Program-made: the position numbers and the translations under genes | Shown: one piece after another, positions 4,813 to 60,111 of the stretch | How the letters are laid out: each line of letters opens with the position of its first letter | How positions within the stretch are numbered: the first letter of the stretch is position 1 | The notes under the pieces: model-generated | What the model was told of the DNA's origin: nothing | The model's database searches: none | Seen by the model: the letters and a program-made list of their open reading frames with translations, nothing else | IMG/VR virus record: IMGVR_UViG_2974596396_000001 | Span: 88,254-152,253 of that record | Length of the DNA: 64,000 nt | Strand: one strand, 5' to 3' | DNA from: a virus | Taxonomy: Duplodnaviria; Heunggongvirae; Uroviricota; Caudoviricetes; Ackermannviridae

Positions 4813-5127
4813 ATGACAACCCGAAATATTACCTCTGAACAATCCGTGTCACAAATCCTCATTAATTCCCGCACCCAAAAAGAACGTCTTTTTGACATCC
4901 TCACTAATGTGATCAATATTCGTCGACAATTAGATGGTGAATTTCCCGAATCTGATTCTGAAGAAAAATCAACACACAATCCAGGTCTTGTTGGTGCTAT
5001 CCTTAACATACAAGGAGAGCAGGACGATATCATCGATAGAATCAATGCCCACATGGACGTCATCCATACTAAACTGGGAACGTTTTATCACCCAAATTGT
5101 GAAGACGAGTCTAAAGATAATTGTTAA
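4813..5127 (+). CDS. Hypothetical protein
   Basis: ORF with CAGGAG RBS. Confidence 0.4.
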   Translation: MTTRNITSEQSVSQILINSRTQKERLFDILTNVINIRRQLDGEFPESDSEEKSTHNPGLVGAILNIQGEQDDIIDRINAHMDVIHTKLGTFYHPNCEDESKDNC

Positions 5128-5188
5128 TGTTTTCAATAAATGGGTAATGAACCATCATTACCCAACTTTCACAATAGGAATACAACTC

Positions 5189-5383
5189 ATGGCAAAAGAA
5201 ACTCTTAACAATGAAAACTCCAACTTTGCAGAATGGCATACCGAATTAGAGCGCGTTGCCCGTTCTCAACATGGTTCTGCCGCTGATGCAGATGCTTGGC
5301 GTGAAGATTATGAATCTGGAAAAACTCCACGTCAGGCTTGGGAAGACGAATGGGGGTGGGATGATGCCGACTCTAATCCGTAA
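5189..5383 (+). CDS. Hypothetical small acidic protein
   Basis: Inner ATG of ORF 4934. Trp/Asp/Glu-rich product. Confidence 0.3.
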   Translation: MAKETLNNENSNFAEWHTELERVARSQHGSAADADAWREDYESGKTPRQAWEDEWGWDDADSNP

Positions 5384-5594
5384 GATATATCTGGATAAGA
5401 ACTATTTGGAATCTAAAATCGAAGTTTTCACGGCTCAAAAAATATTTGAAGACGGTGAAACGAGATATTATCTGAATCCAGACCTTTATCTCCCAGGAAG
5501 TAATTTGAATCGCGACATATCCCAAATAGACGGCACAATCATTCGTTGGGAAATAGCGACGCAAGAAGACAACTGTCACAACATAACACTTTGA
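5361..5594 (+). CDS. Hypothetical protein
   Basis: ATGATG start preceded by a G-rich RBS. Overlaps the end of the previous gene. Confidence 0.3.
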   Translation: MMPTLIRKIYLDKNYLESKIEVFTAQKIFEDGETRYYLNPDLYLPGSNLNRDISQIDGTIIRWEIATQEDNCHNITL

Positions 5595-5609
5595 AGAGAG
5601 AACTACATC

Positions 5610-6056
5610 ATGTCTAAACAAAATTATATCTTTATTAGTCCAGGACGTTCCCAGTTTTTTCGTAGCGACATCGATACACCTATCGAAGGTTTTCGCATTT
5701 TCAAATGCTATAAATTGGCCAGCGGTGACATTGATTATCAAAGTCACGACAATGACCGCCAAGACTTGGTTGATAACGGTTGGGAAGAAATAGATTCTCC
5801 TCAATATCTGACCGTCAACCTTTATTATATGAAGGAAAGCGGTAAATATTATTCGACTGGGGAGTTGAAAATCCGAGTTTCAGAAGCCCAATCCAATCCA
5901 GCAAAAAGTTGGTATGACACGCAAGAGTTAGTGCGTGATCTCCTGAAGAAAGGCGAACTGCCTGGCTTGGTTAAAGGTTCCCGTTTTGATACCTTCATGT
6001 CCTGTGAACAACACCCGTGCTATGTTCCGACTTTATTTAAAATCAGCAACATGTGA
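5610..6056 (+). CDS. Hypothetical protein
   Basis: ORF with RBS. Confidence 0.5.
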   Translation: MSKQNYIFISPGRSQFFRSDIDTPIEGFRIFKCYKLASGDIDYQSHDNDRQDLVDNGWEEIDSPQYLTVNLYYMKESGKYYSTGELKIRVSEAQSNPAKSWYDTQELVRDLLKKGELPGLVKGSRFDTFMSCEQHPCYVPTLFKISNM

Positions 6057-7144: not shown

Positions 7145-7489
7145 ATGACAGTCGACACCAAACTGAATAATTCCGTGGAGATCCCCCACATCGTCAAATT
7201 CGAAAAGCCGAGCGAGCGTAAGCCACGCAAAACGCGCCGCCTGGTCACCAAGCTGGATCTTCTGAAACAGAAGTTCGGCGATCACAGTGTGTTCACTCGC
7301 ATCCGTAACGCATTAAAGGAAGGGCGAACCGAGTTGGAGCTATATCGTCCAAACGGTTCGACTCGTGCGTATCAGACCACCGACGGTTTGCTGGAACTGA
7401 TCCGCCTCTCGGGAATGAGCATAGAACCTCGTTCATCAGGGACTCCCTTGTGCAGCCTGTACGTCATCAGCAATCTTGGGGCGCTGTGA
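7145..7489 (+). CDS. Hypothetical basic protein
   Basis: ORF with GAGGA RBS. Confidence 0.45.
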   Translation: MTVDTKLNNSVEIPHIVKFEKPSERKPRKTRRLVTKLDLLKQKFGDHSVFTRIRNALKEGRTELELYRPNGSTRAYQTTDGLLELIRLSGMSIEPRSSGTPLCSLYVISNLGAL

Positions 7490-7494
7490 GTTCT

Positions 7495-7917
7495 ATGAAG
7501 AAATATGTCGTGCTCATTACAGGTTCCCGCTCAATAACCGAGCGGGATAAAATCTTCGCCAAACTGGATGAACTGTTAGATCCCCACGAGATCGAAACTT
7601 TTATAGAAGGTGAAGCGGTTGGTGTGGACTTGATATCTCGTGATTGGTGTGAAATCAATTATGTCCATGTTACGCCAATGGGGATCCCTAAGGATTATCA
7701 CACGATATATGGGAAAGGCGCAGGAAACCAACGTAACAAAGATATGTTAGACAAAGCTACAACCCTGGCCAAACAAAAAGGTCTTGAGGTCTTTGGAATT
7801 GCGTTATGGGATGGTTCGTCTACTGGGACGCAAGACATGATTACCCGCATGAAAAAAGCAGGAGTCAATGTCAATATCACTCTCATGGGCAAACCCAAAA
7901 CCAAACGATTGTTATAA
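7495..7917 (+). CDS. SLOG/DprA-like (DUF2493-like) putative nucleotide-binding protein
   Basis: VVLITGSRS-ITERD N-terminal motif of the SLOG superfamily. Confidence 0.35.
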   Translation: MKKYVVLITGSRSITERDKIFAKLDELLDPHEIETFIEGEAVGVDLISRDWCEINYVHVTPMGIPKDYHTIYGKGAGNQRNKDMLDKATTLAKQKGLEVFGIALWDGSSTGTQDMITRMKKAGVNVNITLMGKPKTKRLL

Positions 7918-7950
7918 ATATGTTTGCCTTCACACCCATATGGAGTTAGC

Positions 7951-8122
7951 TATGCTGCAATTAATTTTGATTCTTTGTGTCGCTTTTACCATGTACTTTC
8001 TGGCGCGAATCAGTTATATCACACTAAATGATCTGAAAGATACACCACGCGAACCTAAATTTATATTTCTAAAGAAATACACCAAAAAGTTCTGCGAGAA
8101 TTTTATCTATCATCTTCCGTGA
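7951..8122 (+). CDS. Small membrane protein (1 TM)
   Basis: Inner ATG of ORF 7868 with GGAG RBS. Hydrophobic N-terminus. Confidence 0.35.
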
Positions 8123-8123
8123 T

Positions 8124-8131
8124 TATAAATA
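8124..8131 (+). promoter_or_regulatory. T4-type late promoter TATAAATA
   Basis: Exact TATAAATA 22 nt upstream of the ATG at 8154. A hairpin ACCCCCAAAATTGGGGGT follows it. Confidence 0.55.
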
Positions 8132-8153
8132 CCCCCAAAATTGGGGGTATTTT

Positions 8154-8882
8154 ATGAACGCACAAATCTACGATGTCCTTTCCTCTGGTAATGCATTTAG
8201 CAACCCGCTTCCGTCCCTCTCCGGACCCTCACAGGATTTAATCACCAGTGGTAGTACCAATATACCATTGATAACTGCCAACGCGACTCCGGAGATGCAG
8301 GCGGCTATGGTTGCTGGTGGACTAACACCAGAAAAACTCACAGCAGCCACCACCATGTATAGCGCCGCCAACACGGGGATAACGACACTGAACACATATG
8401 GCGACCAAAGTATCAATGACGCGTATTCTCGCATCGGTACTTCCGTGTCATACAAATCAGGTCTGAAGGGTATATCACGAGAGCCAAACAATTGTGATTT
8501 GATCAACAAGGCTTTTGGTGTTGTTCAGGATTTAGGACGCCAATGGCTGAATGCTATGGAAGGTGCTCTACAGACCGTAACAAACAAGATATCGGAATTG
8601 TATGACATGATTATGGAAGGTGCCTCAGAAGGGATGGCAAAACTACAGCAATTGGCTGCTGAAGTAACAGGACATATCAATGAGGCAATAACCGCCGTCA
8701 ATGGAGTTATAAACGATATCACCGATGGGATAGCTGCAGAACTTGCTCATATTGAAAGTATGATCAAAGAATGTCTAAACTTCTCTTTTGCGAATGTTCT
8801 TGGAGAATGGGCTAAAGATCTCTGTGCTGGAGGCGTTATTGATAAAATAGGGACTCCAGAATTAAAAGAGTCCCTGAAATAA
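8154..8882 (+). CDS. Late protein, probably virion structural
   Basis: Lies downstream of a consensus late promoter. No recognisable catalytic motif. Confidence 0.5.
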   Translation: MNAQIYDVLSSGNAFSNPLPSLSGPSQDLITSGSTNIPLITANATPEMQAAMVAGGLTPEKLTAATTMYSAANTGITTLNTYGDQSINDAYSRIGTSVSYKSGLKGISREPNNCDLINKAFGVVQDLGRQWLNAMEGALQTVTNKISELYDMIMEGASEGMAKLQQLAAEVTGHINEAITAVNGVINDITDGIAAELAHIESMIKECLNFSFANVLGEWAKDLCAGGVIDKIGTPELKESLK

Positions 8883-9503
8883 TCAATGTCTAGCGGGGAG
8901 AACTCCCACTGGTTCGATACCTTCCATCACCAGGGAGTTCACCCCAACATCACTCATTCGAATCCATACTTTACCGCCTGGTCTTATTTCATAGATGTTC
9001 ATTTCATTACCCACAGCAGATCCATTAACGAAAACACCCTGAGTGGCAATTCGGATCGGAGATTTGGTGTTATTAACTATCTGAAATGATATTGCAACGT
9101 CTCTGGTGATTTCTACGTCCCTTGCTTGAGTATTCCTTCTGAGTTTGTCAAAGAAAGAAGGGTTGAAAGTCGCTATGATGCTATTATTCTGAGAGTAATA
9201 AATACTTGCGGATAGATATGGGATCTTTCCTTCGTCACCTTTCCTCAATAGGGGAATCGTGGTTTTCCAGTATGGTCTCAGTGACTGGTTGTTATCATCA
9301 AAACAACCAACAGCTTGAAGAGTCTGGAAGTTCTGAAAATCAGATACTACTTGATTCAGAATATTTTTATTGCATTTATCAATGTCGGCTGAGATGTTAA
9401 CAGGTATGGTTCTGATTTCAGGATCCCAGAGGTCGGTTACAGAAATGACGGACGTGACAAAGATACGGCAACTTGTGAGTGCAAGCACCATTATCATCGT
9501 CAT
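8883..9503 (-). CDS. Putative lipoprotein on the opposite strand
   Basis: 232-aa minus ORF. The internal start MTMIMVLALTSC has a lipobox LTSC. The ORF-track first M is a non-ATG codon. Confidence 0.5.
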   Translation of the reverse strand: MTMIMVLALTSCRIFVTSVISVTDLWDPEIRTIPVNISADIDKCNKNILNQVVSDFQNFQTLQAVGCFDDNNQSLRPYWKTTIPLLRKGDEGKIPYLSASIYYSQNNSIIATFNPSFFDKLRRNTQARDVEITRDVAISFQIVNNTKSPIRIATQGVFVNGSAVGNEMNIYEIRPGGKVWIRMSDVGVNSLVMEGIEPVGVLPARH

Positions 9504-9566
9504 GATCCATTTTCTGAATCCGCGTATCAGGAACACTAAAACGTTCTCCACAGCAAAGGTGCTAAC

Positions 9567-10064
9567 ATGACAGGTGTACAATTCAAAAACGAAAATCCTA
9601 ATTTCGCGGCTTCCGATAAATGGCGCTTAACTATCGGAGACCTGATATTGCTTACTCGTTCAATACATGACTTCAGTATTCCTGGAGTGTATTCTGAAGG
9701 TATCGAGGGACCATCCCCTGGCGATGTGCTCAACTCCATACCTTCAGAACGTCTCACGTATGACCCCATCGTATTTACGTTCGTTATCGATGAGAGTTGG
9801 TACAACTGGGAACAGATTTACAATTGGATTGCGTCCAATGCTGGATCTGATTTAGCTGTTAGCCGTGACATCACCATCGACCTTCTTGATAACATGAATC
9901 GACCTGTTGGTCTACAATTGTTGTTGGAAGAAGCCCGTCCCACAGCTTTGGACAACGTATTGGTGGATGTGGATGCTGCGGTTCCCCAACTGGTCACGAC
10001 TGTCACGTTCAAATATTTGAAACTGACTCCGACTCGCGTCACCCGCGAAATTGATAAACAATAA
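9567..10064 (+). CDS. Hypothetical protein
   Basis: ORF with RBS. Confidence 0.5.
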   Translation: MTGVQFKNENPNFAASDKWRLTIGDLILLTRSIHDFSIPGVYSEGIEGPSPGDVLNSIPSERLTYDPIVFTFVIDESWYNWEQIYNWIASNAGSDLAVSRDITIDLLDNMNRPVGLQLLLEEARPTALDNVLVDVDAAVPQLVTTVTFKYLKLTPTRVTREIDKQ

Positions 10065-10102
10065 GTTATAATACAGAGAGTTGAAACAGCAGGGAATAAA
10101 TC

Positions 10103-10558
10103 ATGAGCGAAACAAAACTTGAAACGATGAAAACCGAAGATATAATGGCAGAATTGGAGCCTCTTATTTCGGTAAATCCTGAAGACATGAACTTAGACCA
10201 AATGTCATTGAAAATTGGTCGTTCGTGGATGACTGTGCAACGCCATTATATTCGTGAAGGAAGATATCTGGAGTATCTAACTGGCAAATTCCGCCAAATA
10301 GATCTCTATTTACGCCGATTTTATGCAGGGGAATTGCCGCCCAACGTTTATGTTGAACGCCCATTAAAAGTTCGACCCCTGAAATCTGATATAGACGTAT
10401 GGGTAAAAGCAGATGATGATTATATCGAATTGTCTAGCATGCTTCAAGAGCAGAAAGCCAAAGTCAAGTTTATCGAAAGTTGCTTAGATCGTTTGAACAA
10501 ACTCGGATATGAAGTGAAGAATGCTATTGATTGGCGAAAATATTTGGATGGGATGTAA
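10103..10558 (+). CDS. Hypothetical protein
   Basis: ORF with RBS. Confidence 0.5.
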   Translation: MSETKLETMKTEDIMAELEPLISVNPEDMNLDQMSLKIGRSWMTVQRHYIREGRYLEYLTGKFRQIDLYLRRFYAGELPPNVYVERPLKVRPLKSDIDVWVKADDDYIELSSMLQEQKAKVKFIESCLDRLNKLGYEVKNAIDWRKYLDGM

Positions 10559-11304
10559 TGGTTTCTCTACAGGCTTTGCGCAAACTTAATGACTTTGAAA
10601 ATCGTCATCATACATTTCAGCAATATTCCTTGCCGTTTAAGGAACTGACTTGCGTAACTACCGAAAATGGTCGTCACTATGTTTCCCCCACTGGAGTCAA
10701 ACTAACTTCAGTGACGACCATGTTAGGGCGTACTGGTGACCACACATGGTTAGAAGCCTGGCGGGACAAGTTGGGGCATGAAGCTGCTGATATAGAAACA
10801 CATCGTTGCGCAGACCGTGGGGAAAAACTCCATTTGGCTTGTGAGTTGTATCTCAAAAACAGACCAATGAAGGAAGTTCTGGAAGCTGCAGGGGAATACG
10901 TGTTTATGTTCAAACAGGTTTTCCCCTACCTTAACAAAATGAGCAAGATATATGCACAAGAGATTCCATTATATAGCGAAGTCCTGGGTCTTGCTGGTCG
11001 TGTTGACCTCATCGGGGTTTACGAAGGAATTCCAAGCATAATCGATTTCAAAACATCTAACACCCTAAAAACTCGAAGCATGATAGAAGATTATAGTATA
11101 CAATTGTGTCTATACTCAGTCATGTTTCAACAAATGTTTAATGTCAAGATAGAGCGTTTAATCAATATTATATCCAACGAAAATGCCCTTGTTCCCACCA
11201 TAATCGAATTCAATCGCAAAGACGTTATTTCTAAAATGTTTGACCGTGTCCGTCTGTATCACAAAATGGACAAAGAACAGAACGGAATCTGGGCGGATCG
11301 CTAA
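10558..11304 (+). CDS. PD-(D/E)XK (Cas4/RecB-like) nuclease
   Basis: GRVDLIGVY-IIDFKTS matches motifs II and III (D-x-K-T) of RecB-family nucleases. TAATG start overlap. Confidence 0.55.
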   Translation: MVSLQALRKLNDFENRHHTFQQYSLPFKELTCVTTENGRHYVSPTGVKLTSVTTMLGRTGDHTWLEAWRDKLGHEAADIETHRCADRGEKLHLACELYLKNRPMKEVLEAAGEYVFMFKQVFPYLNKMSKIYAQEIPLYSEVLGLAGRVDLIGVYEGIPSIIDFKTSNTLKTRSMIEDYSIQLCLYSVMFQQMFNVKIERLINIISNENALVPTIIEFNRKDVISKMFDRVRLYHKMDKEQNGIWADR

Positions 11305-11332
11305 ATACTCCATAATATTGGGGGAATTGGTG

Positions 11333-12838
11333 ATGTCAGAAATTCAAATAATCAAAGTTAATGAAGTCCGCATGCGTATCTTGGCAGAGGACTACATCCG
11401 CGAAGAACTCAACGATTACTTCAAATTTGAAGATCCCAATTTCCAACCAAATCCGTTCAGTAAATGGGATGGCGTGGTACGCCTATTCACAAAGAGTTCT
11501 GGTCTTATAGACATCGGCCTATTGTTTGAGGTGTTTAAATTCTGTAAGATGAATGGATACACCATTAAATTAGATCCCGCCTTAAAATATATCCAAGATA
11601 TACCAGACGAAGAGATACACACATTTATCAATTCTTTGAATGCTGTGTATCGTGATGAAAACAAGCAATACCAAATCGCAACAGTGCGTGACTATCAATT
11701 CGACTCAGTGGCCACAGCAATACGCCAGTCCAGATGCGTGCTGGAAGCGGCTACGAGCGCGGGTAAATCGTTTATTTTGTACATCATGGCGCGTTACTAC
11801 AGGCAACGCAGAGAGGCTCTGGAAAGCAATCTCAAGACGTTGATCGTTGTACCATCTATTCACTTGGTGACTCAGTTATATGACAACTTTGAGGAATACA
11901 GTCACGGCACAAATTGGAATACCATGATGAATGTCCAGATGATATGTGAAGGCGCGACAAAGGACATATTCAAGCCCATAGTCATTTCTACATGGCAGGG
12001 TATTCAGAATCAACCCAAAGAGTGGTTCCATCAGTTCGGGGATATTGTTGTTGACGAAGTACACACTTCTAAATCAGACAAGTTGTCTTACATCTTGAAT
12101 AACTGCGTTAATGCTGACCAAAGATTGGGAGTAACCGGAACCCTCGCAAATACAAAGGTTGCGGGATTGCAGGTCGTTGCCCACTTTGGCGCATACCATA
12201 AAATTATTACAGCGCGTGATTTGATAAATCTTGGTTATGCCACAGATATCCATGTTAACATGATTGAAGTTATACATCCAATGGCAGATTGTATAGAAAT
12301 GCACGGAGCCGAGTATCAAAAGGAAATAGAATTCCTCATAGCGAATGAACGTCGAAACGAATTGATAGCCAGAATGGCGTTGTCTTTGAAAGGCAACGTG
12401 GCTGTTATGTTCGAACGTATTGACGCTCATATGATGATCGTTTATGAAATGCTTTCTGCTGTCAAGAAAAACGTATTTGTCATCAATGGTGAAGTCAAAA
12501 CAGAAGTTCGTAAACAAATTCAGGCGGCGATGGAAGAAGGCGAAGACATAACACTGTTGGCGTCATATGGAACCATGCAGCAAGGCGTGTCAATCAAAAA
12601 ACTTCATCATCTGATATTAGCACACCCAAGTAAATCCTATATCCGTGTCATACAGACTTTAGGGCGTCTCATGCGTCAGCACTCTTCAAAGGATGTTGCC
12701 AAGATCTGGGATTTAGTCGACAACTTGCGTTACAATGGATTTTCGTACAACCATGCCCTTAGACATTCACATGAGAGATATAAATTTTATCTTATGGAGC
12801 GACACCCTGTACAAATGAAGAAAGTATCGCTCCAATAA
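11333..12838 (+). CDS. uvsW: UvsW DNA helicase (SF2, DExH)
   Basis: Collinear with T4 UvsW. Walker A GKS, a DEVH box, and the HHLILAHPSKS-IQTLGRLMR C-terminal motifs. Confidence 0.9.
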   Translation: MSEIQIIKVNEVRMRILAEDYIREELNDYFKFEDPNFQPNPFSKWDGVVRLFTKSSGLIDIGLLFEVFKFCKMNGYTIKLDPALKYIQDIPDEEIHTFINSLNAVYRDENKQYQIATVRDYQFDSVATAIRQSRCVLEAATSAGKSFILYIMARYYRQRREALESNLKTLIVVPSIHLVTQLYDNFEEYSHGTNWNTMMNVQMICEGATKDIFKPIVISTWQGIQNQPKEWFHQFGDIVVDEVHTSKSDKLSYILNNCVNADQRLGVTGTLANTKVAGLQVVAHFGAYHKIITARDLINLGYATDIHVNMIEVIHPMADCIEMHGAEYQKEIEFLIANERRNELIARMALSLKGNVAVMFERIDAHMMIVYEMLSAVKKNVFVINGEVKTEVRKQIQAAMEEGEDITLLASYGTMQQGVSIKKLHHLILAHPSKSYIRVIQTLGRLMRQHSSKDVAKIWDLVDNLRYNGFSYNHALRHSHERYKFYLMERHPVQMKKVSLQ

Positions 12839-12840
12839 AT

Positions 12841-13215
12841 TTATCTGTCTTGATTCACATAGGCGGGGGTTGCCTCGCCTTCATCACCCGCTGCACCGAA
12901 CAACTTGTCCAGGGAAGCCAAGCATTGAGAATTCAGGTGCTCGCCAATCGTGTCTTTCAACATCTGCTCACTGCCGAGTTGGAATGGTAACACTTTCGCT
13001 TCGATGCCGTTGTCATACGAAACCACACCGACATACAGACCAACTTTCAGGCCTGTCATCAACCCCAGCGGGATGAAGCGCGGCTCTACTGGGAAGTTTT
13101 TGTCAGCAGCCAGTTGAGAAAGAAAGACTGGTGTGCCTGTAACGAATTGCCCTGCGGTGAGGATGGCATCCGGCTTACTGCATCCCACTGCGTATAATCC
13201 TACGAACTGTTTCAT
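12841..13215 (-). CDS. Small reverse-strand protein, possible lipoprotein
   Basis: 124-aa minus ORF with the N-terminus MKQFVGLYAVGC (lipobox-like AVGC). Convergent with uvsW at 2-nt spacing. Confidence 0.4.
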   Translation of the reverse strand: MKQFVGLYAVGCSKPDAILTAGQFVTGTPVFLSQLAADKNFPVEPRFIPLGLMTGLKVGLYVGVVSYDNGIEAKVLPFQLGSEQMLKDTIGEHLNSQCLASLDKLFGAAGDEGEATPAYVNQDR

Positions 13216-13553
13216 ATATTACTCTCGTGTGTTGGTTAACATGACTACATATTATTTCGCGCCCATGTTTAGACCAAATTAAATTAATTTTGCTGTTGAA
13301 TAAAAACTGCTTTCCTGTTGAACAAATGGCGTGGTATTATACGAGTTGTGAGCTTTGCGAGCAACGAGTATTATCACGAGCGAAGCGAGTAGACTAATAA
13401 AGAAAGGTTTTATTAAAACAGAATACTATAAATGCCGTCAGGCATTTATTTACCGCGCGTAGGGCATTAACACTTGTTCTATAACTACAAACACGCGATA
13501 CTAATTTGCGTCAAACATGACTTGAACCCCACTATATTTTGAGGATATAAACA

Positions 13554-14222
13554 ATGCAAGAGATCACTCTCTCCGAACGCACTTTACAACTGCTGGCTAA
13601 CTTTGAAACCATTTGCCCTTCTATCGTTCTGGCACCTGGTAAAAAGCTGCGCACGGTTAACGATTCCAGCACCGTCATCGCTATTGCCGATATTGACGAA
13701 GACTTCCCGTTTGAATTTCCTATTCTGGATCTGACCAAACTTCTGGCCATTCAGCGTCTGCCTAGTTTCAAAGGCGGTAAAATCGAAATGTCGGAAGACC
13801 ACATTTTACTGAAAGGTGAAAACTCTCAGCTGCAATTCTGGCGCTCAGCAAAAGAATTGACTGTCGTTCCTGCCGACAGCATTGATCTCCCGTCCGTTGA
13901 ATTCGAAGCGACGGTCACTCCTGAAAAAATGAAAGAGCTGACTCGCGCCTGTTCCACCCTGGGCCACAAAACTGTTCGTCTGGTCGCCAGCGGCGGTAAA
14001 ACTCGTCTGGTTGGTACGACTACGACTATCGATAATTCCAACGATTACACCGTTGAATTGGGTGAAACTGCTCTGGCTGATTTCGCTATGCCTGTCGACG
14101 TTGTTAACCTGAAAATGATCGAAGGCAACTATGTGATCCGCGCCTGTGCTGAAATGCAGCTTGTCAACTTCCAGTCGGCCGATGGCACCATCAACTACTA
14201 CGTTGGTATGCAGCTGGATTAA
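13554..14222 (+). CDS. 45: Sliding clamp gp45
   Basis: Length and N-terminal pattern match T4 gp45 (L-NF-I). Followed by gp44 and gp62. Confidence 0.85.
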   Translation: MQEITLSERTLQLLANFETICPSIVLAPGKKLRTVNDSSTVIAIADIDEDFPFEFPILDLTKLLAIQRLPSFKGGKIEMSEDHILLKGENSQLQFWRSAKELTVVPADSIDLPSVEFEATVTPEKMKELTRACSTLGHKTVRLVASGGKTRLVGTTTTIDNSNDYTVELGETALADFAMPVDVVNLKMIEGNYVIRACAEMQLVNFQSADGTINYYVGMQLD

Positions 14223-28234: not shown

Positions 28235-28924
28235 ATGAAACGTTTAATCATCGGGGTTGTGCTGGCTGGTCTGGCACTTCCTGCCACCGCCAAGCTGAAT
28301 TCCACGGGTGAAAAACTGTGGTCTGATCTTTCCTACTGTGCTGGGTTCTCCCAAGCCGTCGCTATAGACAAAACTGGTTCCATAGAGAACTTTGCTGAAC
28401 TCTGGGCCACAGGTAATGTCACAGATGCCGTTGTAAATGCTGGTATTGAGTTTAATCGATATAAGCAAGGCGCGTTCAACCTGAAAGGATATATGAACGA
28501 CAAAGAATTTAACCGAGGAGGCATGGAGGCTGGCGATCTTATTATGACTGGTCGTATGGGCACACAAGGACGAATGACCGTAAGACAGTGCCGTTCTCTT
28601 CCTTCTCCAGCATTACAAAAAGGTGTGCAGGTTGGCCGACGTCAGCTGGATCTCATCAATGATGGCAACCAATGTATCCGAGTATTTGAATATAGTGCTG
28701 ATCAAGAATCAGATCAACGTTTGAAAAAGGAATGGCGGACTCGCGCCCTTGGCCTGAGAGCATGGCTGGTGGAAAATGATCATTATTATGAAGACCGTGT
28801 TCAGAATGGTTTGAAAGATCTTTCCACTAATTTGTCTGTCAATCTAGACGACCCAAGGCTTTCGCGTGAACTCAAGCAAACAAGAATTGACTGCGATAAT
28901 ATGATGAAGGAGAACGAAAGATGA
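28235..28924 (+). CDS. Secreted or periplasmic protein
   Basis: AGGAGAA RBS. Signal peptide MKRLIIGVVLAGLALPATA. Confidence 0.5.
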   Translation: MKRLIIGVVLAGLALPATAKLNSTGEKLWSDLSYCAGFSQAVAIDKTGSIENFAELWATGNVTDAVVNAGIEFNRYKQGAFNLKGYMNDKEFNRGGMEAGDLIMTGRMGTQGRMTVRQCRSLPSPALQKGVQVGRRQLDLINDGNQCIRVFEYSADQESDQRLKKEWRTRALGLRAWLVENDHYYEDRVQNGLKDLSTNLSVNLDDPRLSRELKQTRIDCDNMMKENER

Positions 28925-29241
28925 AAATCAAAATCTTATTGTTATTCCTGTACGCTTTCATGTCTTCCCAAGTATTGGCAGCTCCGGCCAGTAAGTTGAA
29001 TATTTGTGCTGCTTGGTTGTCTACATATCAACAATTTCATCCGGATGATAAGGACACATCAATCCTTTTATCTGATTATGAAGGTGAATTGAAACGCCTT
29101 GATCTCTATAGTGTGGACCAGATAGAGAATGCGCTTGATTTACCCATGATGGAATCTGCTGCAGACAACAGCAAACAGACTATTAAAGATTTGACTATGT
29201 GCCGTGAAATTGCAACTAATTTCGTTGGAAATCAAAGATAG
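28921..29241 (+). CDS. Secreted small protein
   Basis: Signal peptide MKIKILLLFLYAFMSSQVLAA. ATGA overlap with the previous gene. Confidence 0.5.
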   Translation: MKIKILLLFLYAFMSSQVLAAPASKLNICAAWLSTYQQFHPDDKDTSILLSDYEGELKRLDLYSVDQIENALDLPMMESAADNSKQTIKDLTMCREIATNFVGNQR

Positions 29242-30809: not shown

Positions 30810-31097
30810 ATGTCCGGCGTATGGTGTGATGTATTGTTGGTAAGATTTTCAAACGGGATGGATAACCAGATTATTTCATTCTTTTATCCTGTTCCCTTTT
30901 CTTCTATGGGTCTGACTGTCAAGCGCGTTCTTGACATAGAAGAAAAACTCAACGCCATGCCGTATATGGCGCGACCACACGTGCTGGGTTGTGAACTGTT
31001 AAACGAAATGATGATTGACGAGAACCTTGTTGAAACCATCATTACTCGTGAGCAAATGAAAGTAATATTGGCGCAGGGAGAACCCCATGTCGAATAA
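30810..31097 (+). CDS. Hypothetical protein
   Basis: GGAGGT RBS. Inner start of ORF 30768. Confidence 0.45.
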   Translation: MSGVWCDVLLVRFSNGMDNQIISFFYPVPFSSMGLTVKRVLDIEEKLNAMPYMARPHVLGCELLNEMMIDENLVETIITREQMKVILAQGEPHVE

Positions 31098-31407
31098 ACC
31101 GTTTGAACTTAAATTTCGCGTTTGGCATATTCCCCAGGTTCCTGGGATCGCTTTTCATGTTGAGGTTCCAACATTTGAAGAAGCGCAGCGCCTGAAGAAT
31201 ACTCTGGCTGATTACGACCTGTTTCAGTATAACAATAACATCAAGCCGGATTATTGTAATGCTTCCGGCGTTCAAATATACCAACATGATCTGACTGAAG
31301 AAGATCTAAATGATATGGGTCTGGATGATCGTTGGGTTGATATCGAAGATATTGACGAACTCAACGATTATTTTGATCATCTGCGTAGCACAGGGTGGGA
31401 AATATGA
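31087..31407 (+). CDS. Hypothetical acidic protein
   Basis: GGAGAA RBS. Asp/Glu-rich C-terminal half. Confidence 0.45.
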   Translation: MSNKPFELKFRVWHIPQVPGIAFHVEVPTFEEAQRLKNTLADYDLFQYNNNIKPDYCNASGVQIYQHDLTEEDLNDMGLDDRWVDIEDIDELNDYFDHLRSTGWEI

Positions 31408-31613
31408 TCGGGTTAATCCGTTATCTGTTCATATTCGTAATTTCAACATTCATTTTATTTTTCTTTTTCAAATACTTGAAAGAGACTAAAATCTACCGAA
31501 GTAAACGTTGGCGTAAACGGGTGAGGGTAACTTTCCTGCTGCTGATTTCTTCGGTTACAATAACCGCACTCACATTGGGTGCTTATATTTACATTTTTGA
31601 AGGGGTACATTGA
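31404..31613 (+). CDS. Small 2-TM membrane protein
   Basis: Two hydrophobic helices separated by the basic loop KRWRKR. Translationally coupled to the SPFH gene. Confidence 0.45.
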   Translation: MIGLIRYLFIFVISTFILFFFFKYLKETKIYRSKRWRKRVRVTFLLLISSVTITALTLGAYIYIFEGVH

Positions 31614-32404
31614 TGTTCAAGAAATTGGTGTTTGGTGCAATTATGGTTCTGGCTGCAAGTCTACTTTCTGGTTGTGGTGGCGTTATCGATGAAGGTAATG
31701 TCGGCGTTCGAACCCAATGGGGTGAAGTGGACATGAACCCTGTAACCGCAGGTATCTACACCAGTTTCGTTTCAAGTGTAGATGTCTATACGACTAAAGA
31801 AGCCGTCGTGAGTCTGACGAAAATGACGCCAAAGGCCAAAGACAACCTGACCTTGGAAGATCTGGATGTGGACGTTTATTACACACCGAACGTCGCGAAG
31901 GTTCCTTGGTTCCATACCAAATTTGCAGGTCAGAGCGCTGAACTCGGTGACGGCACGATAGCGGTGGGATTCAACCTGGTTAAAACCGCCGCAGCATCCT
32001 CAACGATGGACGCCGTTTCCTCTTTGGATTCTATGACAATTCACACCCAACGGGCTGAGTTAGAAAAGATGATCAAGGAACGCACCCAGCAGCAATTGGA
32101 AACTGCTGCGCCTGGCATGTTCACAATCACACGTGTGTTGGTGAAAAAGGCGCTGACAGATCCTTCGATTGAGCAATCTATCCGTGATAATGTCATGGCC
32201 GACAAACGTTTGGATACAGCAAGAAAGAACGTTGAAATTCGAGACCAAGAAGCCAGGGCGAATCAGAAACTGACGACATCTCTGACACCTGAATATTTAC
32301 AACACGAATATAACATGGTGTTGCAATCTTGCGCCAACAGCGGGAAATGTACTCTGATCGTTGACGGATCCGGCTCAGGTAAAATGCTGAACGTCGGCAA
32401 ATAA
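31613..32404 (+). CDS. SPFH/Band-7 (stomatin/HflK-like) domain lipoprotein
   Basis: Lipobox LLSGC. VIDEGNVGVRTQWGEV fits the SPFH N-terminal motif. GAAGGGG RBS. Confidence 0.6.
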   Translation: MFKKLVFGAIMVLAASLLSGCGGVIDEGNVGVRTQWGEVDMNPVTAGIYTSFVSSVDVYTTKEAVVSLTKMTPKAKDNLTLEDLDVDVYYTPNVAKVPWFHTKFAGQSAELGDGTIAVGFNLVKTAAASSTMDAVSSLDSMTIHTQRAELEKMIKERTQQQLETAAPGMFTITRVLVKKALTDPSIEQSIRDNVMADKRLDTARKNVEIRDQEARANQKLTTSLTPEYLQHEYNMVLQSCANSGKCTLIVDGSGSGKMLNVGK

Positions 32405-32766: not shown

Positions 32767-32825
32767 TCACACCAGGCGTCGGCCCAGCGCATGTCTGCAG
32801 TGCAGCGGCGCAAGGCTAAAAGGAG

Positions 32826-32853
32826 AAGCCGAGGTTAATGCCTCGGCTTTTTC
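32826..32853 (+). terminator. Rho-independent terminator
   Basis: AAGCCGAGG-TTAATG-CCTCGGCTT followed by TTT. Confidence 0.85.
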
Positions 32854-32901
32854 GTTGTTGGGATTCGGGTAAACTATAACAGAATCCAAAGGAGGAACAA
32901 C

Positions 32902-34623
32902 GTGACAGCATTTAATCAACACCGAAAGGCGATTGACGCCATAGGCCGTAAGGTTCCTGTGGAAGAAATACAACGCCTTGCCAAAGATGAATTCCCATAT
33001 GACAAAGCGAACCCAGGCCAGATGGAATGTATCGTCGAAGCCGTTGATGCCTTGGTCAACAAAAAGGTCAAACACGTAATCATTGAAGCCCCAACTGGCG
33101 TGGGGAAATCTTTGATTGGCACTACCATTCATAAAGTGATTCGCCATCTAGTTTTACAGGCTGATCCTTATGGGCAATTTCGCACTTCTATCAGCACCCC
33201 GACCAAAGGTCTGCAAGATCAGTATGCTGCTGAAAAGGCGGTGGCGATAGACATCCTAAAAGGCAAGAAGAACTATCGTTGCCACGTACACCCAGATGTG
33301 TATTACAACGCTGTGCAATGCCGTATAGCATGCCGCGACGGGCATTGTAGCAAACGCCGTTGTCCTTATGTACAGGCGCGCAATTTATGGACTGATATTT
33401 CGTCATTGCGTTGCACTAATGCAGCTATGATGATTGAGATGTGCACCACCATCTGTATGAAGCCTGAAAACCGTTCCGATATGCTGATCTTAGACGAGTG
33501 TCATAAGATGCCCTCTACGCTCCTAGAGCACACGATCATGGAATACAATACAAAGGCCGTGGAGGGGCTGCGTTCTATCCCTGAGGGCAAGGAGATCGTC
33601 TCTACCATTGGTGATATCGTAGAACGCACCAAGGACTATGTCCTGGGCAAGTTATATTCTTTGTCTGGTGAACTACATTCAATGTTTGAAGACCTCCATC
33701 TCAAAGTAGAAAATTTGTTGGAAGTTCTTGAAGAATTGGTCGAAGATGATCGCTTGAGTGAAAGCCAAGTGATGAAACTCGCAGACATTATAGATGTCTT
33801 GCATAACTTGAGTGATTATTGCGGTATTATGTCACAAACCCAAGCAAGTACATTTATTGTGCAAGAAAAGGGGGAAGATTTTATCCGGTTTAAACCTGTT
33901 ATGCCTTCTGATGTAAGCGAATTCGGGTTATTCCGAAAAGCCGATTATCACGTTCATATGTCAGCAACGATCTGCGGCATAGATTCTTATGCTCGTTCAT
34001 TGGGTATTCGACAGGGGGATTATCATTCCATTCAGATCGGCAACCCTATCCCAATTGAAAACAGAAAAGTCAACTATATGCCCATAGTGAAGATGACTAA
34101 CAATATGGGCGACTATGAAATGAAAAGGTTGACGGAATATATTGATGAAATAATCGCGTTCCACCCAGGTCAGTCCGGCATTATCCATACAGTGAGTTAT
34201 GATCGCGCCTTGGCAATACAAAAATTTAGTAAATATCAGAATTTTATCCATGTTCCGCGCACCCGAAAGGCGTTGATGGATATTATGGAAAATGCTTTTA
34301 GAACAAAGTCCCCATGCGTCATTGCCAGTCCGGCTATGGAAGAAGGTTATGATTTCAAAGGGGATTACAGCCGTTTCCAAATACTGATCAAAGTCCCTTA
34401 TGATTATCTGGGCGATCCACTGATAGCACATATCAATTCAGTGGATCCGTCGGCATATTTCCGCAATGCAGTACTGCGCATTGTTCAAATGTGTGGGCGT
34501 TCGGTCAGGGGTGTTGATGACTGGGCTGCGACATACATCATTGATTCATCCTTTGAATCTCTTATGATGCGCAACCCAGAATTCTTCCCAACCTGGTTCA
34601 CCGATGCAGTGTTTGAGGTTTAA
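32902..34623 (+). CDS. DinG/XPD-family (Rad3-like) Fe-S helicase
   Basis: GTG start after an AAGGAGG RBS. Walker A EAPTGVGKS. Four-Cys cluster CRIACRDGHCSKRRCPY. DEAH box LILDECH. Confidence 0.7.
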   Translation: MTAFNQHRKAIDAIGRKVPVEEIQRLAKDEFPYDKANPGQMECIVEAVDALVNKKVKHVIIEAPTGVGKSLIGTTIHKVIRHLVLQADPYGQFRTSISTPTKGLQDQYAAEKAVAIDILKGKKNYRCHVHPDVYYNAVQCRIACRDGHCSKRRCPYVQARNLWTDISSLRCTNAAMMIEMCTTICMKPENRSDMLILDECHKMPSTLLEHTIMEYNTKAVEGLRSIPEGKEIVSTIGDIVERTKDYVLGKLYSLSGELHSMFEDLHLKVENLLEVLEELVEDDRLSESQVMKLADIIDVLHNLSDYCGIMSQTQASTFIVQEKGEDFIRFKPVMPSDVSEFGLFRKADYHVHMSATICGIDSYARSLGIRQGDYHSIQIGNPIPIENRKVNYMPIVKMTNNMGDYEMKRLTEYIDEIIAFHPGQSGIIHTVSYDRALAIQKFSKYQNFIHVPRTRKALMDIMENAFRTKSPCVIASPAMEEGYDFKGDYSRFQILIKVPYDYLGDPLIAHINSVDPSAYFRNAVLRIVQMCGRSVRGVDDWAATYIIDSSFESLMMRNPEFFPTWFTDAVFEV

Positions 34624-35387
34624 TAACCCGCAATAAACGATAAATGGCACTTGATATTTGGTTCAAGTGTCGTTATCGTGATAATCATATTGTCCACATC
34701 TTGGCTGAAAGATATATTTGCGATCGGTTTGGTTTGAACATGATTATACAGGCTATAAATCAGATCTTCACCACGATAACCGATTTTGCCATCAGTGTCC
34801 TGCCAATGACCGAGGGTAGACTCTCGAGCGTGTACTCGGAATTCGACCATATGAAACAATGCTTTTGGGATGGTCTTCAGTATGCTGGTCCCAACAACCG
34901 GAATATCAATAGAAGAGTCGTTGGAGTTTCCTTCATAAACAGATTCCCAACCAAATATTGGATCCCCACCAGCTACAGGAGTTCTTTTCCAGTATTGGAA
35001 TTCTGGGTTTCCGGCAGAGTTCTTTTGTAGGAGGATTACTTCACCGCCTTCAAAATTGGAAGTGTCTATATCGTCCCTTGCTAATAAATCTGCCGGAGAA
35101 CCAATAAATTTCCAAGTTTCGCGATCTAAAATAGACTTATAATGATCGGTGAATACGTTACTGTCGCCAGCTGAATTAATTGCGTCTTTAAGACCTTGAC
35201 CTGTGACCATCTCATTGAGTTTGATCCACATGTTCTTAACAGCTGACGCAGCTGCGACCTGACCTTCAGTCCCACCCGCCGTGTAGTCATATACGATGTC
35301 CAGCTTTTGTATGGAATCATTTATAGACAAGAGCAAACGCTCAATTTCTGGGGCGGTCAGACTGAAACGATATGCGCGTTCTGACAT
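34620..35387 (-). CDS. Reverse-strand hypothetical protein
   Basis: 255-aa minus ORF whose stop overlaps the helicase stop. No signal peptide. Confidence 0.5.
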   Translation of the reverse strand: MSERAYRFSLTAPEIERLLLSINDSIQKLDIVYDYTAGGTEGQVAAASAVKNMWIKLNEMVTGQGLKDAINSAGDSNVFTDHYKSILDRETWKFIGSPADLLARDDIDTSNFEGGEVILLQKNSAGNPEFQYWKRTPVAGGDPIFGWESVYEGNSNDSSIDIPVVGTSILKTIPKALFHMVEFRVHARESTLGHWQDTDGKIGYRGEDLIYSLYNHVQTKPIANISFSQDVDNMIITITTLEPNIKCHLSFIAGY

Positions 35388-46116: not shown

Positions 46117-46470
46117 ATGGTCAATGCGAGTATTTTCATCAACCGTGGACTGCTTGCTATAGCCCACTCTCATGCCCTCCACTTCGTTACAACGTCCTAT
46201 GCCAAGCACAAGGCACTCGGGGAGTTCTACGGGGAACTGGAGGACTTGCTGGATACCTTTACAGAGGCATATATCGGCGCGGGTGGTGTATATGTCCCAG
46301 GGTTTGAGAATATTAAACTGTACAACCCAGATCCTATATCGTATGTCAACAGCGTTGTTATCGACGTAAACGGAATTTATGGTCAATGCGACAGCCATCT
46401 TCAAAATACGCTCGATGAAATCAAAACTTTGTGCTATCAGACCATCTACAAACTGAAGCAATTGTCTTAA
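46117..46470 (+). CDS. Hypothetical protein
   Basis: ORF. Confidence 0.45.
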   Translation: MVNASIFINRGLLAIAHSHALHFVTTSYAKHKALGEFYGELEDLLDTFTEAYIGAGGVYVPGFENIKLYNPDPISYVNSVVIDVNGIYGQCDSHLQNTLDEIKTLCYQTIYKLKQLS

Positions 46471-46532
46471 CTCAATAGAACATCCTTCAGGTTATAATTT
46501 GCCCATTCGTCATCAATAGGATACAGATAACA

Positions 46533-47150
46533 ATGGGCAAAATATTCATACCTTCGCATTCAGAAGGTTGTCAGATCGCAGCAAAATATCTTCACAAGCA
46601 AATGAACTGTGGTGCTGTGTTTGTAGAACCAAATTCTTTTGATAATCGTGAATCCCCTGACGCCATCGGGTTCAGACCTGGGGGTTGTTCTATATTAATG
46701 GAAGTTAAAGTCTCCCGCGCCGACTTCCTGACAGACAAAAAGAAACCTCATCGCATGAATCCTTCAACAGGAATGGGGGCATACCGATTTTATGTTTGTC
46801 CTGCTGATGTGATCAAAGTTGAAGATCTCCCACCAAAGTGGGTATTATTATATTTCACTCCTCGGAAATCATTGAAGCCCGTTCACGTTCCGAATATGCA
46901 ATATTCTTCGTTATCTTCTCCGGAACATTATGCATCATATTTGTCTAAATCCTTGGGCAAAAGAAATCCTACAGATATCCCTCCTTACCTGTTAGGATAC
47001 AAGCAGATGTTGGAAGAATTCGCCCACTTTGAACGAAATCAAGTCGCAGAGCAGAATATTCTATATGGTGCATGGAGACAGCTTTGCATAGCTCAAAGTC
47101 GCGGTGTAAATTATAATGTGACAGAAGTATTCCAAAGGCCAAACATATGA
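46533..47150 (+). CDS. PD-(D/E)XK-fold (VRR-NUC/MmcB-like) putative nuclease
   Basis: SPDAIGF-ILMEVKVSR fits the PD-(D/E)XK motif. Confidence 0.4.
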   Translation: MGKIFIPSHSEGCQIAAKYLHKQMNCGAVFVEPNSFDNRESPDAIGFRPGGCSILMEVKVSRADFLTDKKKPHRMNPSTGMGAYRFYVCPADVIKVEDLPPKWVLLYFTPRKSLKPVHVPNMQYSSLSSPEHYASYLSKSLGKRNPTDIPPYLLGYKQMLEEFAHFERNQVAEQNILYGAWRQLCIAQSRGVNYNVTEVFQRPNI

Positions 47151-56730: not shown

Positions 56731-57144
56731 TCAATTTGTCCGTTTCAACCATATGGTGTCTGTTATCGGCTCTGGGTTGTTGACCACATAGAACGTGATG
56801 GTTACGCCCAGAGAATGATAATCGTCCGACAATGATACATCAACAGATTGCAATTCAGCTCTTGGCTCAAAAAGAGCAATGGCATCTTCAACTTTGTTCT
56901 TCACGTCGACCTGTATCGTGGGATTTGTATTTTCTCCCAGCATGGTATACAACCCCGCCCCAATACTCGGATACGTCGGCCAATCACCTACCGTCGCCAT
57001 CACTATATTACGCACAGATTGTAGTACAGCATAAATGCCTGTTTTCTTAGTGACATCTTTGGTGACCGGATGCATGCCAAACTTCAGGTCAATGTCCTTG
57101 TACTCTTTCATGTTAAACCCCTTTGGATATTGCCTCTCCAGCAC
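56731..57144 (-). CDS. 25: Baseplate wedge protein gp25-like
   Basis: Size and central region resemble T4 gp25. Adjacent to the gp5-like gene on the minus strand. Confidence 0.6.
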   Translation of the reverse strand: MLERQYPKGFNMKEYKDIDLKFGMHPVTKDVTKKTGIYAVLQSVRNIVMATVGDWPTYPSIGAGLYTMLGENTNPTIQVDVKNKVEDAIALFEPRAELQSVDVSLSDDYHSLGVTITFYVVNNPEPITDTIWLKRTN

Positions 57145-57175
57145 GAGAGGGCATTATCTGCCCTCACCAGTGTAA

Positions 57176-58801: not shown

Positions 58802-58821
58802 TAGTCAATTAGAATCATGTG

Positions 58822-58830
58822 ATATTTATG
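58822..58830 (-). promoter_or_regulatory. Candidate late promoter (CATAAATAT) for the gp5-like gene
   Basis: Minus-strand ATAAATA about 20 nt upstream of the start at 58801. One mismatch to TATAAATA. Confidence 0.3.
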
Positions 58831-59135
58831 GCGGGGATTTGAAATCTGTCGAATAATATATTATAGGAAGCTCTGCTTCCGTTCAACCTTTATTCTTTTC
58901 GTTCCTACTCGCTGAAGCTCGTAACACCGCCTTGACAGGCAGTCCCATTCCAATGCCATGGAGGCATAAAGGCGAGGAAAATACTGTACACCTCAGAACA
59001 TGCGTAGAAAAGCATTATTTTTGTTTCAAAACAAATTCAAAACAGATTTACACAACATTCACATCAGGAACAATGGTGTTATAGCAATTTCGGGTTAAAC
59101 AATCCTTTCTTAAACGGTAATACAGGTAAGCAAAG

Positions 59136-59165
59136 AAAACCCCACATTACGTGGGGTTGGAAGAT
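59136..59165 (-). terminator. Rho-independent terminator (minus strand)
   Basis: AACCCCACGTAATGTGGGGTT followed by TTCTTTG on the minus strand. Terminates gene 59308-60111. Confidence 0.65.
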
Positions 59166-59307
59166 TTCTTAGACAATCTAATTTTCAGTGTCTCGGTAAG
59201 CAAATCAAGATGCCACGGCATCGATTCACTGATTTCAAATATACTATAGCCGTGTGCCTTTAATTCGTCACACATCACAAAATAGGAGAGTAAATCAATT
59301 TCAAAAA

Positions 59308-60111
59308 TTAAATGAAAATCTCAGTGACACTGTTAAATTTGACTTCGTGTTCTTTCCCACACGAAGGGCATTTAATTTTTGTCGCGTAACGAATACGCGG
59401 AATCTTTTTAAAGAAATCATTCGAAATGTCCTGAACAATCTCAGATTCAATATTGTCCCCAACCCATTTGACAAATTCATCCTTAATGCGTTGGCGTTCT
59501 TTAGCAACTTCTGGATCGATACCAGGTTCAGCCGGATTTTCCACCTTCCAAACCTGACCATCGTCGTCATACAGACAATCGATAAAGGTGGCAATCATTT
59601 GTTCAACAGAGGATGCTTCATTAAGCACTGAGGCATCCGAGAAGGACGGCTGGCGCATCTTTATATGATAACCACCTGGTAGATCAAACGTCTCCCTGAA
59701 GCCTTCTGGGGACACGCATTTTACCTGATTGAGCGGGATCGGTAACACAAGCTCTTGACCACAATCTTTAACACCAGAAACTGGTTCTTCACCTTCATTT
59801 GTGTCGGCTTGAACTTTATTGTTACATTTGTAACGTATCTTCATGACCTCGCCGATAGATATACAGCGCATCTTTAAAAATACTTCTTCAGTAACACCGA
59901 TTGGCAGTTTACTAAAGGGAACGCCAGCATCAACACAACTGTCAAATAGTTGCTCCAATGTTGCCACGCGCTCACTCATAGGAGTGTTCGGATCAGCAAC
60001 CTGAAGTAACATGGTCTGTTGCCCTGCTGTAAAGGCGCGGTATTTGATCACAGTCGGCCAGAAATCACTTTTATGTGTTCTCTCAGTTTTGGGCAATGAT
60101 GGTAAATTCAT
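59308..60111 (-). CDS. Late structural (baseplate-associated?) protein with a C-terminal zinc ribbon
   Basis: Minus-strand late promoter TATAAATA 28 nt upstream. C-terminal C-x-x-C KCPSCGKEH. Confidence 0.5.
   Translation of the reverse strand: MNLPSLPKTERTHKSDFWPTVIKYRAFTAGQQTMLLQVADPNTPMSERVATLEQLFDSCVDAGVPFSKLPIGVTEEVFLKMRCISIGEVMKIRYKCNNKVQADTNEGEEPVSGVKDCGQELVLPIPLNQVKCVSPEGFRETFDLPGGYHIKMRQPSFSDASVLNEASSVEQMIATFIDCLYDDDGQVWKVENPAEPGIDPEVAKERQRIKDEFVKWVGDNIESEIVQDISNDFFKKIPRIRYATKIKCPSCGKEHEVKFNSVTEIFI

Follow-up and report, generated by a model that had tools for sequence, protein, structure and literature searches.

T4 Spackle (Sp) is a periplasmic protein that inhibits the tail lysozyme, gp5, of a superinfecting phage. 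The Llp protein of phage T5 is an outer-membrane lipoprotein that faces the periplasm and carries a disulfide (PMC9586334). Here we describe a pair of inverted genes, one of which can be set beside these proteins, in a 64,000-nucleotide stretch of an Ackermannviridae phage genome (IMG/VR record IMGVR_UViG_2974596396_000001, positions 88,254 to 152,253; the whole stretch is called the window, and all coordinates count from its first letter). The window is a Kuttervirus genome (Ackermannviridae, Vi01-like phages): a search with region 7400-13600 found 100% identity to Salmonella phages Se-H, Se-I, Se-J and Se-N and about 94-96% identity to many other Kuttervirus genomes. The two genes, termed gene A (8883-9536) and gene B (12841-13215), lie on the minus strand, and the explanation that we favour, with moderate confidence, is that they are two unrelated single-gene transcription units, gene A encoding a lipoprotein precursor and gene B a small, acidic, cytoplasmic protein that is not a lipoprotein, which have kept their inverted orientation and their places in the genome from an early stage of Ackermannviridae history.

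As judged from its sequence, gene A is a genuine lipoprotein precursor. Its reading frame, which ends with a stop codon at 8883-8885, is open to 9581 and offers candidate starts at 9551, 9536, 9503 and 9497, among which an earlier, sequence-only reading of this DNA had taken ATG 9503 as the beginning of the gene. The start is most likely GTG 9536 instead, giving a precursor of 217 residues. The candidates were compared by a PROSITE PS51257-type rule, in which a lipobox of the form [LIVMFWSTAG]2-[LIVMFYSTAGCQ]-[AGS]-C follows six uncharged residues, the cysteine stands at position 15-35 and a Lys or Arg occurs within the first seven residues. Only the GTG 9536 start passes this rule, with the lipobox cysteine at residue 23, Arg5 among the first seven residues (followed by Arg8 and Lys9) and an uncharged h-region; counted from ATG 9503, the same cysteine is residue 12 and the rule fails. 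The predicted signal peptide, MFLIRGFRKWIMTMIMVLALTS (9468-9536, minus strand), leads into a predicted lipidated Cys23 (codon 9468-9470) through the lipobox L-T-S-C, which the sequence-only reading had correctly picked out, and the residue at position +2 is Arg. A Shine-Dalgarno sequence, GGAGA (9545-9549, minus strand), stands 8 nucleotides upstream of the GTG and adjoins, in opposite orientation, the ribosome-binding site that serves the divergently oriented tail-completion gene (ATG 9567). This GGAGA-spacer-GTG layout is kept in five genera (Kuttervirus, Limestonevirus, Agtrevirus, Taipeivirus and Nezavisimistyvirus), and the predicted gene A homologues start at the aligned position. The mature protein would have 195 residues and, by composition, an isoelectric point (pI) of 7.9.

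In Pfam and PHROG, the only matches of gene A are to DUF7424 (E=1.2e-60, 205 bits against a gathering cut-off of 27, covering positions 2-195 of the 196 in the profile) and to phrog_3832. Across 38 homologues, Cys23 and the Arg that follows it are invariant, as are Cys55 and Cys78, and the lipobox takes the form L-[TVAN]-S-C or S-G-C. Canonical lipoprotein signal peptides are retained even in the most distant relatives, those of Erwinia phage Bue1 (MSPKKIAWVLIVLASLFVSGC, ending in FVSGC; 39% identity to gene A), Aeromonas phage phiA8-29 (MQNFFKKVSVLLAVLVLISC, ending in LISC; 26%) and Vibrio phage D531 (MRFRLWKVAMLLLFCVLISSC, ending in ISSC; 22%), and close Kuttervirus relatives are 96-100% identical. 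A tblastn search located gene A in 346 phage records, all from Ackermannviridae-type hosts ranging from Salmonella and Klebsiella to Vibrio and Aeromonas, and in seven genera it is inverted beside the tail-completion gene. The lipoprotein call is right, yet it is not new, because several GenBank records already name gene A a 'putative lipoprotein'; it appears as 'putative conserved lipoprotein' in Salmonella phages Marshall, bering, pertopsoe and others, and the record of the orthologous open reading frame (ORF) in phage LIMEstone1, ORF128, states 'putative signal peptide present'. The RefSeq annotation of Bue1 (NC_048702) cuts the orthologue to 5328-5651 of 4980-5651, with loss of the signal peptide and lipobox.

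The residue that follows the predicted lipidated cysteine is Arg or Lys and never Asp, which by the sorting rule of the enterobacterial Lol system predicts a periplasm-facing protein in the inner leaflet of the outer membrane, and not the outward-facing one that the sequence-only reading had described; Llp likewise faces the periplasm. The invariant cysteine pair would fit a disulfide made outside the cytoplasm. In an AlphaFold2 model the signal helix precedes a fold made up mainly of beta structure, at a mean predicted local distance difference test (pLDDT) score of 76, and a BFVD fold search with gene A returned DUF7424 members only. There were no matches in PDB profile searches, NCBIfam or PADLOC, the literature searched makes no mention of DUF7424, and searches of Pfam, PHROG, NCBIfam, PADLOC, PDB profiles and BFVD revealed no sequence or fold likeness to Llp, Cor, spanins or any characterised exclusion protein.

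Mass spectrometry of LIMEstone1 virions found ORF127 (tail completion) and ORF129, and ORF128 is not on the list (PMC3296691). ORF129, the orthologue of the plus-strand gene 8154-8882, is thus a confirmed virion protein (PMC3296691), and gene A, with a late virion-protein gene on each side and its own orthologue off the list, appears to be non-structural. The virion proteomics of Sajous1 (PMC10892097), which includes a 'gp214 tail completion protein' and hypothetical gp215-217, was considered as a second view of the gene A locus and set aside, as GenBank places these genes elsewhere and gp214 has 795 residues.

Gene B is a different kind of protein. The minus-strand reading frame 12841-13215 encodes 124 residues with a pI of 4.8 and belongs to phrog_4255, with no Pfam family; it begins MKQFVGLYAVGC, as the sequence-only reading had noted, and its product is not a lipoprotein but a small, acidic protein of the cytoplasm. 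The claim that both genes encode lipoproteins stands for gene A, which passes the rule with an invariant cysteine, and falls for gene B, in which Cys12 is replaced in alignments of homologues by S, D, H, T, E, Y, R, A, L, G or V. Gene B also fails the PS51257-type rule, with the cysteine too early at position 12 and an inadequate h-region, and its strongest hydrophobic window is internal rather than N-terminal. In the AlphaFold2 model (mean pLDDT 80.5), residues 2-11 form a beta-strand of the fold itself (pLDDT 94). The N-terminus MKQFVGLYAVG, with the strand motif xGLYAxG, is invariant, and the protein ends in a disordered tail, [ST]PxYV[NDSK]QD, which here reads TPAYVNQD.

A profile search of 1.84 billion representatives yielded a tiny family for gene B (21 proteins, about 17 of them convincing, all of 114-168 residues), which on this evidence is restricted to the Ackermannviridae. 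A probable distant member is an unannotated 149-residue ORF of Bue1 (995-1444), which has the position and orientation of gene B and aligns with it by hhalign at 73% (E = 3e-5). This ORF carries two YV[DK]-type tail motifs, ends 0 nucleotides from uvsW and is missing from the RefSeq annotation. For orf_121 of Aeromonas phage phiA8-29, which also occupies the position and orientation of gene B, no homology to gene B could be detected.

The middle of gene B has a history of its own. Between the window and bering, which come from one genus, identity is 39% in gene B and 95-100% in the neighbouring genes. Towards Limestonevirus and Agtrevirus the order is reversed, with 85-89% for gene B and only 62-87% for the genes beside it. 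In a sliding window, identity to bering drops to about 55% across 12900-13200 and identity to Agtrevirus climbs to 83-97% across 13000-13300, which places a recombinant patch at 12883-13183 (about 55% to other Kuttervirus genomes, 83-97% to Agtrevirus), flanked by conserved first and last codons. From these comparisons, the middle of the Se-J gene B is a replacement by an Aglimvirinae-type allele, that is, a swap from another subfamily, and the combination of conserved ends with a variable middle suggests a host-interaction protein under diversifying pressure. The uvsW gene (11300-12800) is itself unusually diverged from bering, at 74-92% compared with 97-100% upstream.

In the RefSeq and GenBank annotation, the local plus-strand order is a SLOG-domain gene, a small gene, the DUF7217 virion-protein gene (8154-8882), the tail-completion gene (9567-10064), uvsY, an exonuclease gene, the uvsW helicase gene (to 12838; Pfam UvsW_N match), gp45, gp44, gp62 and regA, with gene A inserted singly after the DUF7217 gene and gene B singly after uvsW. 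The description of two minus-strand genes that interrupt a plus-oriented map holds in so far as both genes are real and the window has no other inverted gene in its first ~32 kb; further minus-strand genes follow downstream, among them 34620-35387, the baseplate genes at 56731-60111 and a tail tube gene from 63958. The inverted single gene 34620-35387 encodes 255 residues, belongs to no Pfam family and runs 4 nucleotides into the end of the helicase gene that converges on it. A minus-strand ORF of 126 residues at 32767-33147 lacks RefSeq annotation and a Pfam match.

Both genes meet their plus-strand neighbours tail to tail, at the distances that had been reported from the sequence. The TAA of the DUF7217 gene (8880-8882) abuts the stop codon of gene A with a gap of 0 nucleotides, and 2 nucleotides (12839-12840) separate the uvsW TAA (12836-12838) from the stop codon of gene B, which overlaps uvsW by 10-16 nucleotides in three other genera. 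Such packing is normal in this genome, where five of the eight convergent junctions in the annotated regions of Se-J, among them that of 34620-35387, have a gap of at most 2 nucleotides or an overlap, and both inverted positions are conserved across genera. The statement that no terminator lies between the convergent genes is trivially true, because no bases lie there to hold one; what it misses are strong hairpins a few nucleotides past the stop codon of each minus-strand gene, inside the 3' coding ends of the convergent genes.

The gene A hairpin (8841-8876, minus strand) starts 7 nucleotides past the stop codon, within the last codons of the plus-strand gene 8154-8882, and consists of a 9-base-pair stem (8848-8876) with a 9-nucleotide loop, followed by AUUUUAUC (8848-8841). 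It is stable relative to shuffled sequence (z = -3.7; 1 of 200 shuffles as stable) and, on the strand that is transcribed, combines a stem-loop containing G+C with a U-rich tract immediately behind it, the arrangement by which intrinsic terminators are recognised. The hairpin should act in one direction only, because its plus-strand tail, GAAAUAAU, is not U-rich. At the same position, non-homologous hairpins with U-runs are found in Taipeivirus, where the structure straddles both stop codons, and in Agtrevirus, and in Bue1 and Vibrio phage D531 the short intergenic gap after gene A holds canonical terminators. That different hairpins, as independent solutions, occupy one position across genera argues that termination of the gene A transcript at this point is under selection.

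The gene B hairpin (12796-12833, minus strand), of 11-13 base pairs, begins 8 nucleotides past the gene B stop codon in the last codons of uvsW. It folds in six phages, covering every genus examined, and across eight distinct sequences pairing is kept in 89% of cells, where slid controls reach 36-57%; a compensatory change is seen at one pair, and several G-U pairs can form on the minus strand only. The hairpin is followed by AUAAGAUAAAAUUUAU, which is A/U-rich without a canonical U-tract, so that its function as a terminator is uncertain. Convergent transcription without terminators, as the sequence-only reading had it, is thus contradicted for gene A by the hairpin and U-tract and is doubtful for gene B.

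All four exact occurrences of TATAAATA in the window (7913, 8124 and 45214 on the plus strand; 60147-60140 on the minus strand) precede a start codon of their own strand by 22-31 nucleotides, a placement consistent with T4-type late promoters used in this phage. The copy at 8124 is 22 nucleotides upstream of the ATG of the 8154 gene, which, in view of this motif and of the virion protein ORF129 of LIMEstone1, looks like the late gene that the sequence-only reading took it to be. This late-promoter-like motif overlaps a hairpin (AATACCCCC ... GGGGGTATT and a T-run; 8124-8153, plus strand) directly upstream of the DUF7217 gene; the hairpin with its T-run, AATACCCCC..GGGGGTATTTT, ends at the ATG, the layout with TATAAATA is kept in four genera, and the LIMEstone1 record annotates the equivalent hairpin as a factor-independent terminator. 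A late transcript that starts within the hairpin would escape termination, and transcripts from upstream would stop. Only 30 nucleotides separate the tail-completion ATG (9567) from the gene A start, and no late-promoter motif belonging to the tail-completion gene was found in this gap or nearby; as the gene lacks a motif of its own, it may plausibly be served by late transcription that sets out from 8124 and crosses gene A in antisense. One candidate, AATAAATA at 9197, lies inside gene A and is conserved in five genera; it was rejected as a late promoter for the tail-completion gene, since on the opposite strand it spells the codons of an invariant Ser-Ile-Tyr-Tyr in gene A, and coding constraint explains its conservation.

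For gene B, a candidate sigma-70-type promoter (13336-13364, minus strand; TTGCTC, 17-nucleotide spacer, TATAAT) was identified by consensus match only. It scored 9/12 in the scan, its -10 hexamer ends 120 nucleotides upstream of the ATG, and the alignment is conserved at both hexamer positions. The LIMEstone1 authors annotated a putative middle promoter, predicted in silico, upstream of ORF121. No transcriptome of a Kuttervirus or other member of the Ackermannviridae turned up in the literature with the terms tried.

The candidate promoter of gene B falls in a 338-base-pair region between gene B and gp45, which contains a highly conserved non-coding element (13338-13390, plus strand). Its two hairpins are both built as CGAG-stem-loop-stem-CGAG, with tandem G-A loops, and the second holds GCGAAGC. 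Blocks of the element are invariant in alignments out to Erwinia phage Bue1, and compensatory changes occur in 3 of the 15 predicted pairs. It folds at -19.7 kcal/mol on the plus strand compared with -7.9 on the minus strand, and is stable on the plus strand only; no match was found in Rfam. When viral contigs were scanned with CGAGTTGTG-N(6-18)-AACGAG, most matches were due to chance, and a stricter three-block pattern alone singled out Ackermannviridae loci. Because the element overlaps candidate promoters on both strands, including the TTGCTC/TATAAT of gene B, it could act as structured RNA, as a palindromic operator or as two divergent promoters that exclude each other. Also upstream of gene B, at 13289-13326 and 13428-13449, are a direct repeat, TTTsCTGTTGAAyAAA, present twice at a spacing of 22 nucleotides, and a perfect 9-base-pair A/T-rich hairpin, ATAAATGCC / GGCATTTAT, the latter kept in Kuttervirus, Agtrevirus and Limestonevirus and absent from Taipeivirus and Bue1.

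Taken as two separate units, the genes would work as follows. The gene A lipoprotein most likely alters the envelope of the infected cell to the benefit of the phage, for example by superinfection exclusion or by protecting released progeny, which by analogy with T5 Llp is the most reasonable guess at its role, albeit an unproven one. Its transcript probably ends at the hairpin and U-tract buried in the last codons of its neighbour. Several observations pull in the opposite direction from this account of the two genes. Gene A is a core gene from Vibrio to Salmonella phages, a poor fit to host-specific receptor masking, and the window already contains a 'superinfection exclusion' gene of the P22 gp17 type (31087-31407, plus strand; Pfam GP17, E = 1e-49), near which lies a second canonical lipoprotein gene (31613-32404, plus strand) with an SPFH/Band 7 domain and the N-terminus MFKKLVFGAIMVLAASLLSGC. 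The gene A hairpin, with its 9-nucleotide loop and interrupted U-run, was missed by a consensus terminator scan, because the loop exceeds the limit of the scan, and Limestonevirus shows no clear equivalent of it. For the gene B hairpin the covariation is thin, with a double change at only one pair, because it sits in conserved coding sequence. Finally, no promoter was found for gene A: within 200 nucleotides there is no sigma-70-like site scoring at least 8/12 and no TATAAATA-like motif.

Among the other explanations, the proposal of the sequence-only reading, that both genes encode outward-facing lipoproteins which block receptors or exclude phage and that terminator-less convergent transcription forms an antisense switch, draws on the lipoprotein signal of gene A, the junction gaps of 0 and 2 nucleotides and the plausible antisense read-through to a tail-completion gene without its own late-promoter motif. 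It is improbable as a whole, since gene B fails every lipoprotein criterion tried, by which the proposal is already refuted for that gene; moreover, the Arg or Lys at +2 predicts a protein that faces the periplasm, both genes are followed by hairpins, and neither resembles a characterised exclusion protein. A part for gene A in lysis or egress, either as an accessory to the spanin or endolysin step or as a blocker of receptor fragments in debris that spares the progeny, would agree with a predicted outer-membrane lipoprotein sited among late structural genes, and also with a family-wide core gene that is independent of host genus, as expected of a target common to all hosts. Spanin (28921-29241) and endolysin (46326-47120) genes are, however, annotated elsewhere in the window, and gene A shows no fold similarity to any lysis protein. 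Nor is it an o-spanin or u-spanin, because no C-terminal membrane segment is apparent in the 195-residue mature protein (in windows of 11-19 residues, the hydrophobic maxima of the precursor are confined to the region of the signal peptide); a partner i-spanin gene is likewise missing, the neighbours being the virion-protein and tail-completion genes. We regard a lysis or egress function as unlikely.

For gene B, many GenBank records (e.g. bering_45, Det7, SS9 and ISTP3) give the name 'clamp loader subunit' or 'sliding clamp holder', which implies a factor associated with the sliding clamp that would dock on gp45 through SLDKLFG. The gene is divergent from gp45 and directly beside it in all genera examined, residues 100-107, ASLDKLFG, resemble the C-terminus of the T4 DNA polymerase, ASLDFLFG, and the homologue P0021 carries an exact SLDFLFG. 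Against these points, searches of Pfam and NCBIfam detected no similarity of gene B to gp44, gp62 or any clamp-related family, so that the clamp names appear to be a propagated annotation error; the motif lies in a packed helix (residues 92-106 of the AlphaFold2 model) and not in a free tail, the Se-J polymerase ends in ...VNLLSMMGKKG, and the gp55 homologue lacks such a motif. Identity with T4 RpbA was also examined and dismissed (hhalign probability 0.15%). A clamp-associated function is thus very doubtful. That one or both reading frames are non-coding artefacts antisense to a long plus-strand transcript has nothing in its favour except their unusual orientation, and is scarcely credible: both belong to protein families with coding-type conservation, both give confident structure models, and the conservation of their position and orientation across genera already refutes it.

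The finding is mostly ordinary, in that gene A is conserved and already annotated and the packing at its junctions is normal. It does bear on the use of the Ackermannviridae (Vi01, CBA120 and LIMEstone), which are widely applied in biocontrol and phage therapy and in which a family-wide lipoprotein such as that of gene A is an obvious candidate for exclusion between the phages of a cocktail or for protection of progeny. In practical terms, there are corrections to be made to the start codon of gene A, to the false lipoprotein call for gene B and to its unsupported 'clamp loader subunit' name in GenBank, and terminator-like hairpins hidden in coding sequence are to be taken into account.

In comparison with described systems, gene A belongs to DUF7424 / PHROG 3832 itself, to which it matches over its full length and from which nothing sets it apart. 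It shares with T5 Llp and the Cor family (T1, phi80) a virulent phage background, a lipoprotein signal, a cysteine pair in the mature part and a position adjoining tail genes. The differences lie in size, position and target: the Llp precursor has 77 residues (PMC9409062) and Cor is small, compared with 195 residues for the mature gene A protein; Llp adjoins a receptor-binding protein gene, whereas gene A adjoins the tail-completion gene; and Llp acts on a single receptor, FhuA, whereas gene A is kept in phages of hosts from Vibrio to Salmonella. With the spanins (the o-spanin Rz1 and unimolecular forms such as T1 gp11) gene A has in common the lipoprotein signal and the predicted outer-membrane location, but it lacks an adjacent or embedded i-spanin partner and an apparent C-terminal membrane segment, and is far larger than an o-spanin. 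The resemblance to Spackle is one of logic, an envelope protein of a T4-type myovirus that targets a conserved phage component instead of a host receptor, and such logic would account for gene A being a family-wide core gene; the tail lysozyme gene of this phage lies at 57176-58801. On this basis it is conceivable, as a long shot, that DUF7424 represents a new class of large outer-membrane exclusion lipoproteins, which would act on a target common to the family (the incoming tail lysozyme or needle, as with Spackle, or a conserved envelope machine) and would be made before late transcription, then shut off by antisense late transcripts that start from TATAAATA at 8124 and read on to the tail-completion gene.

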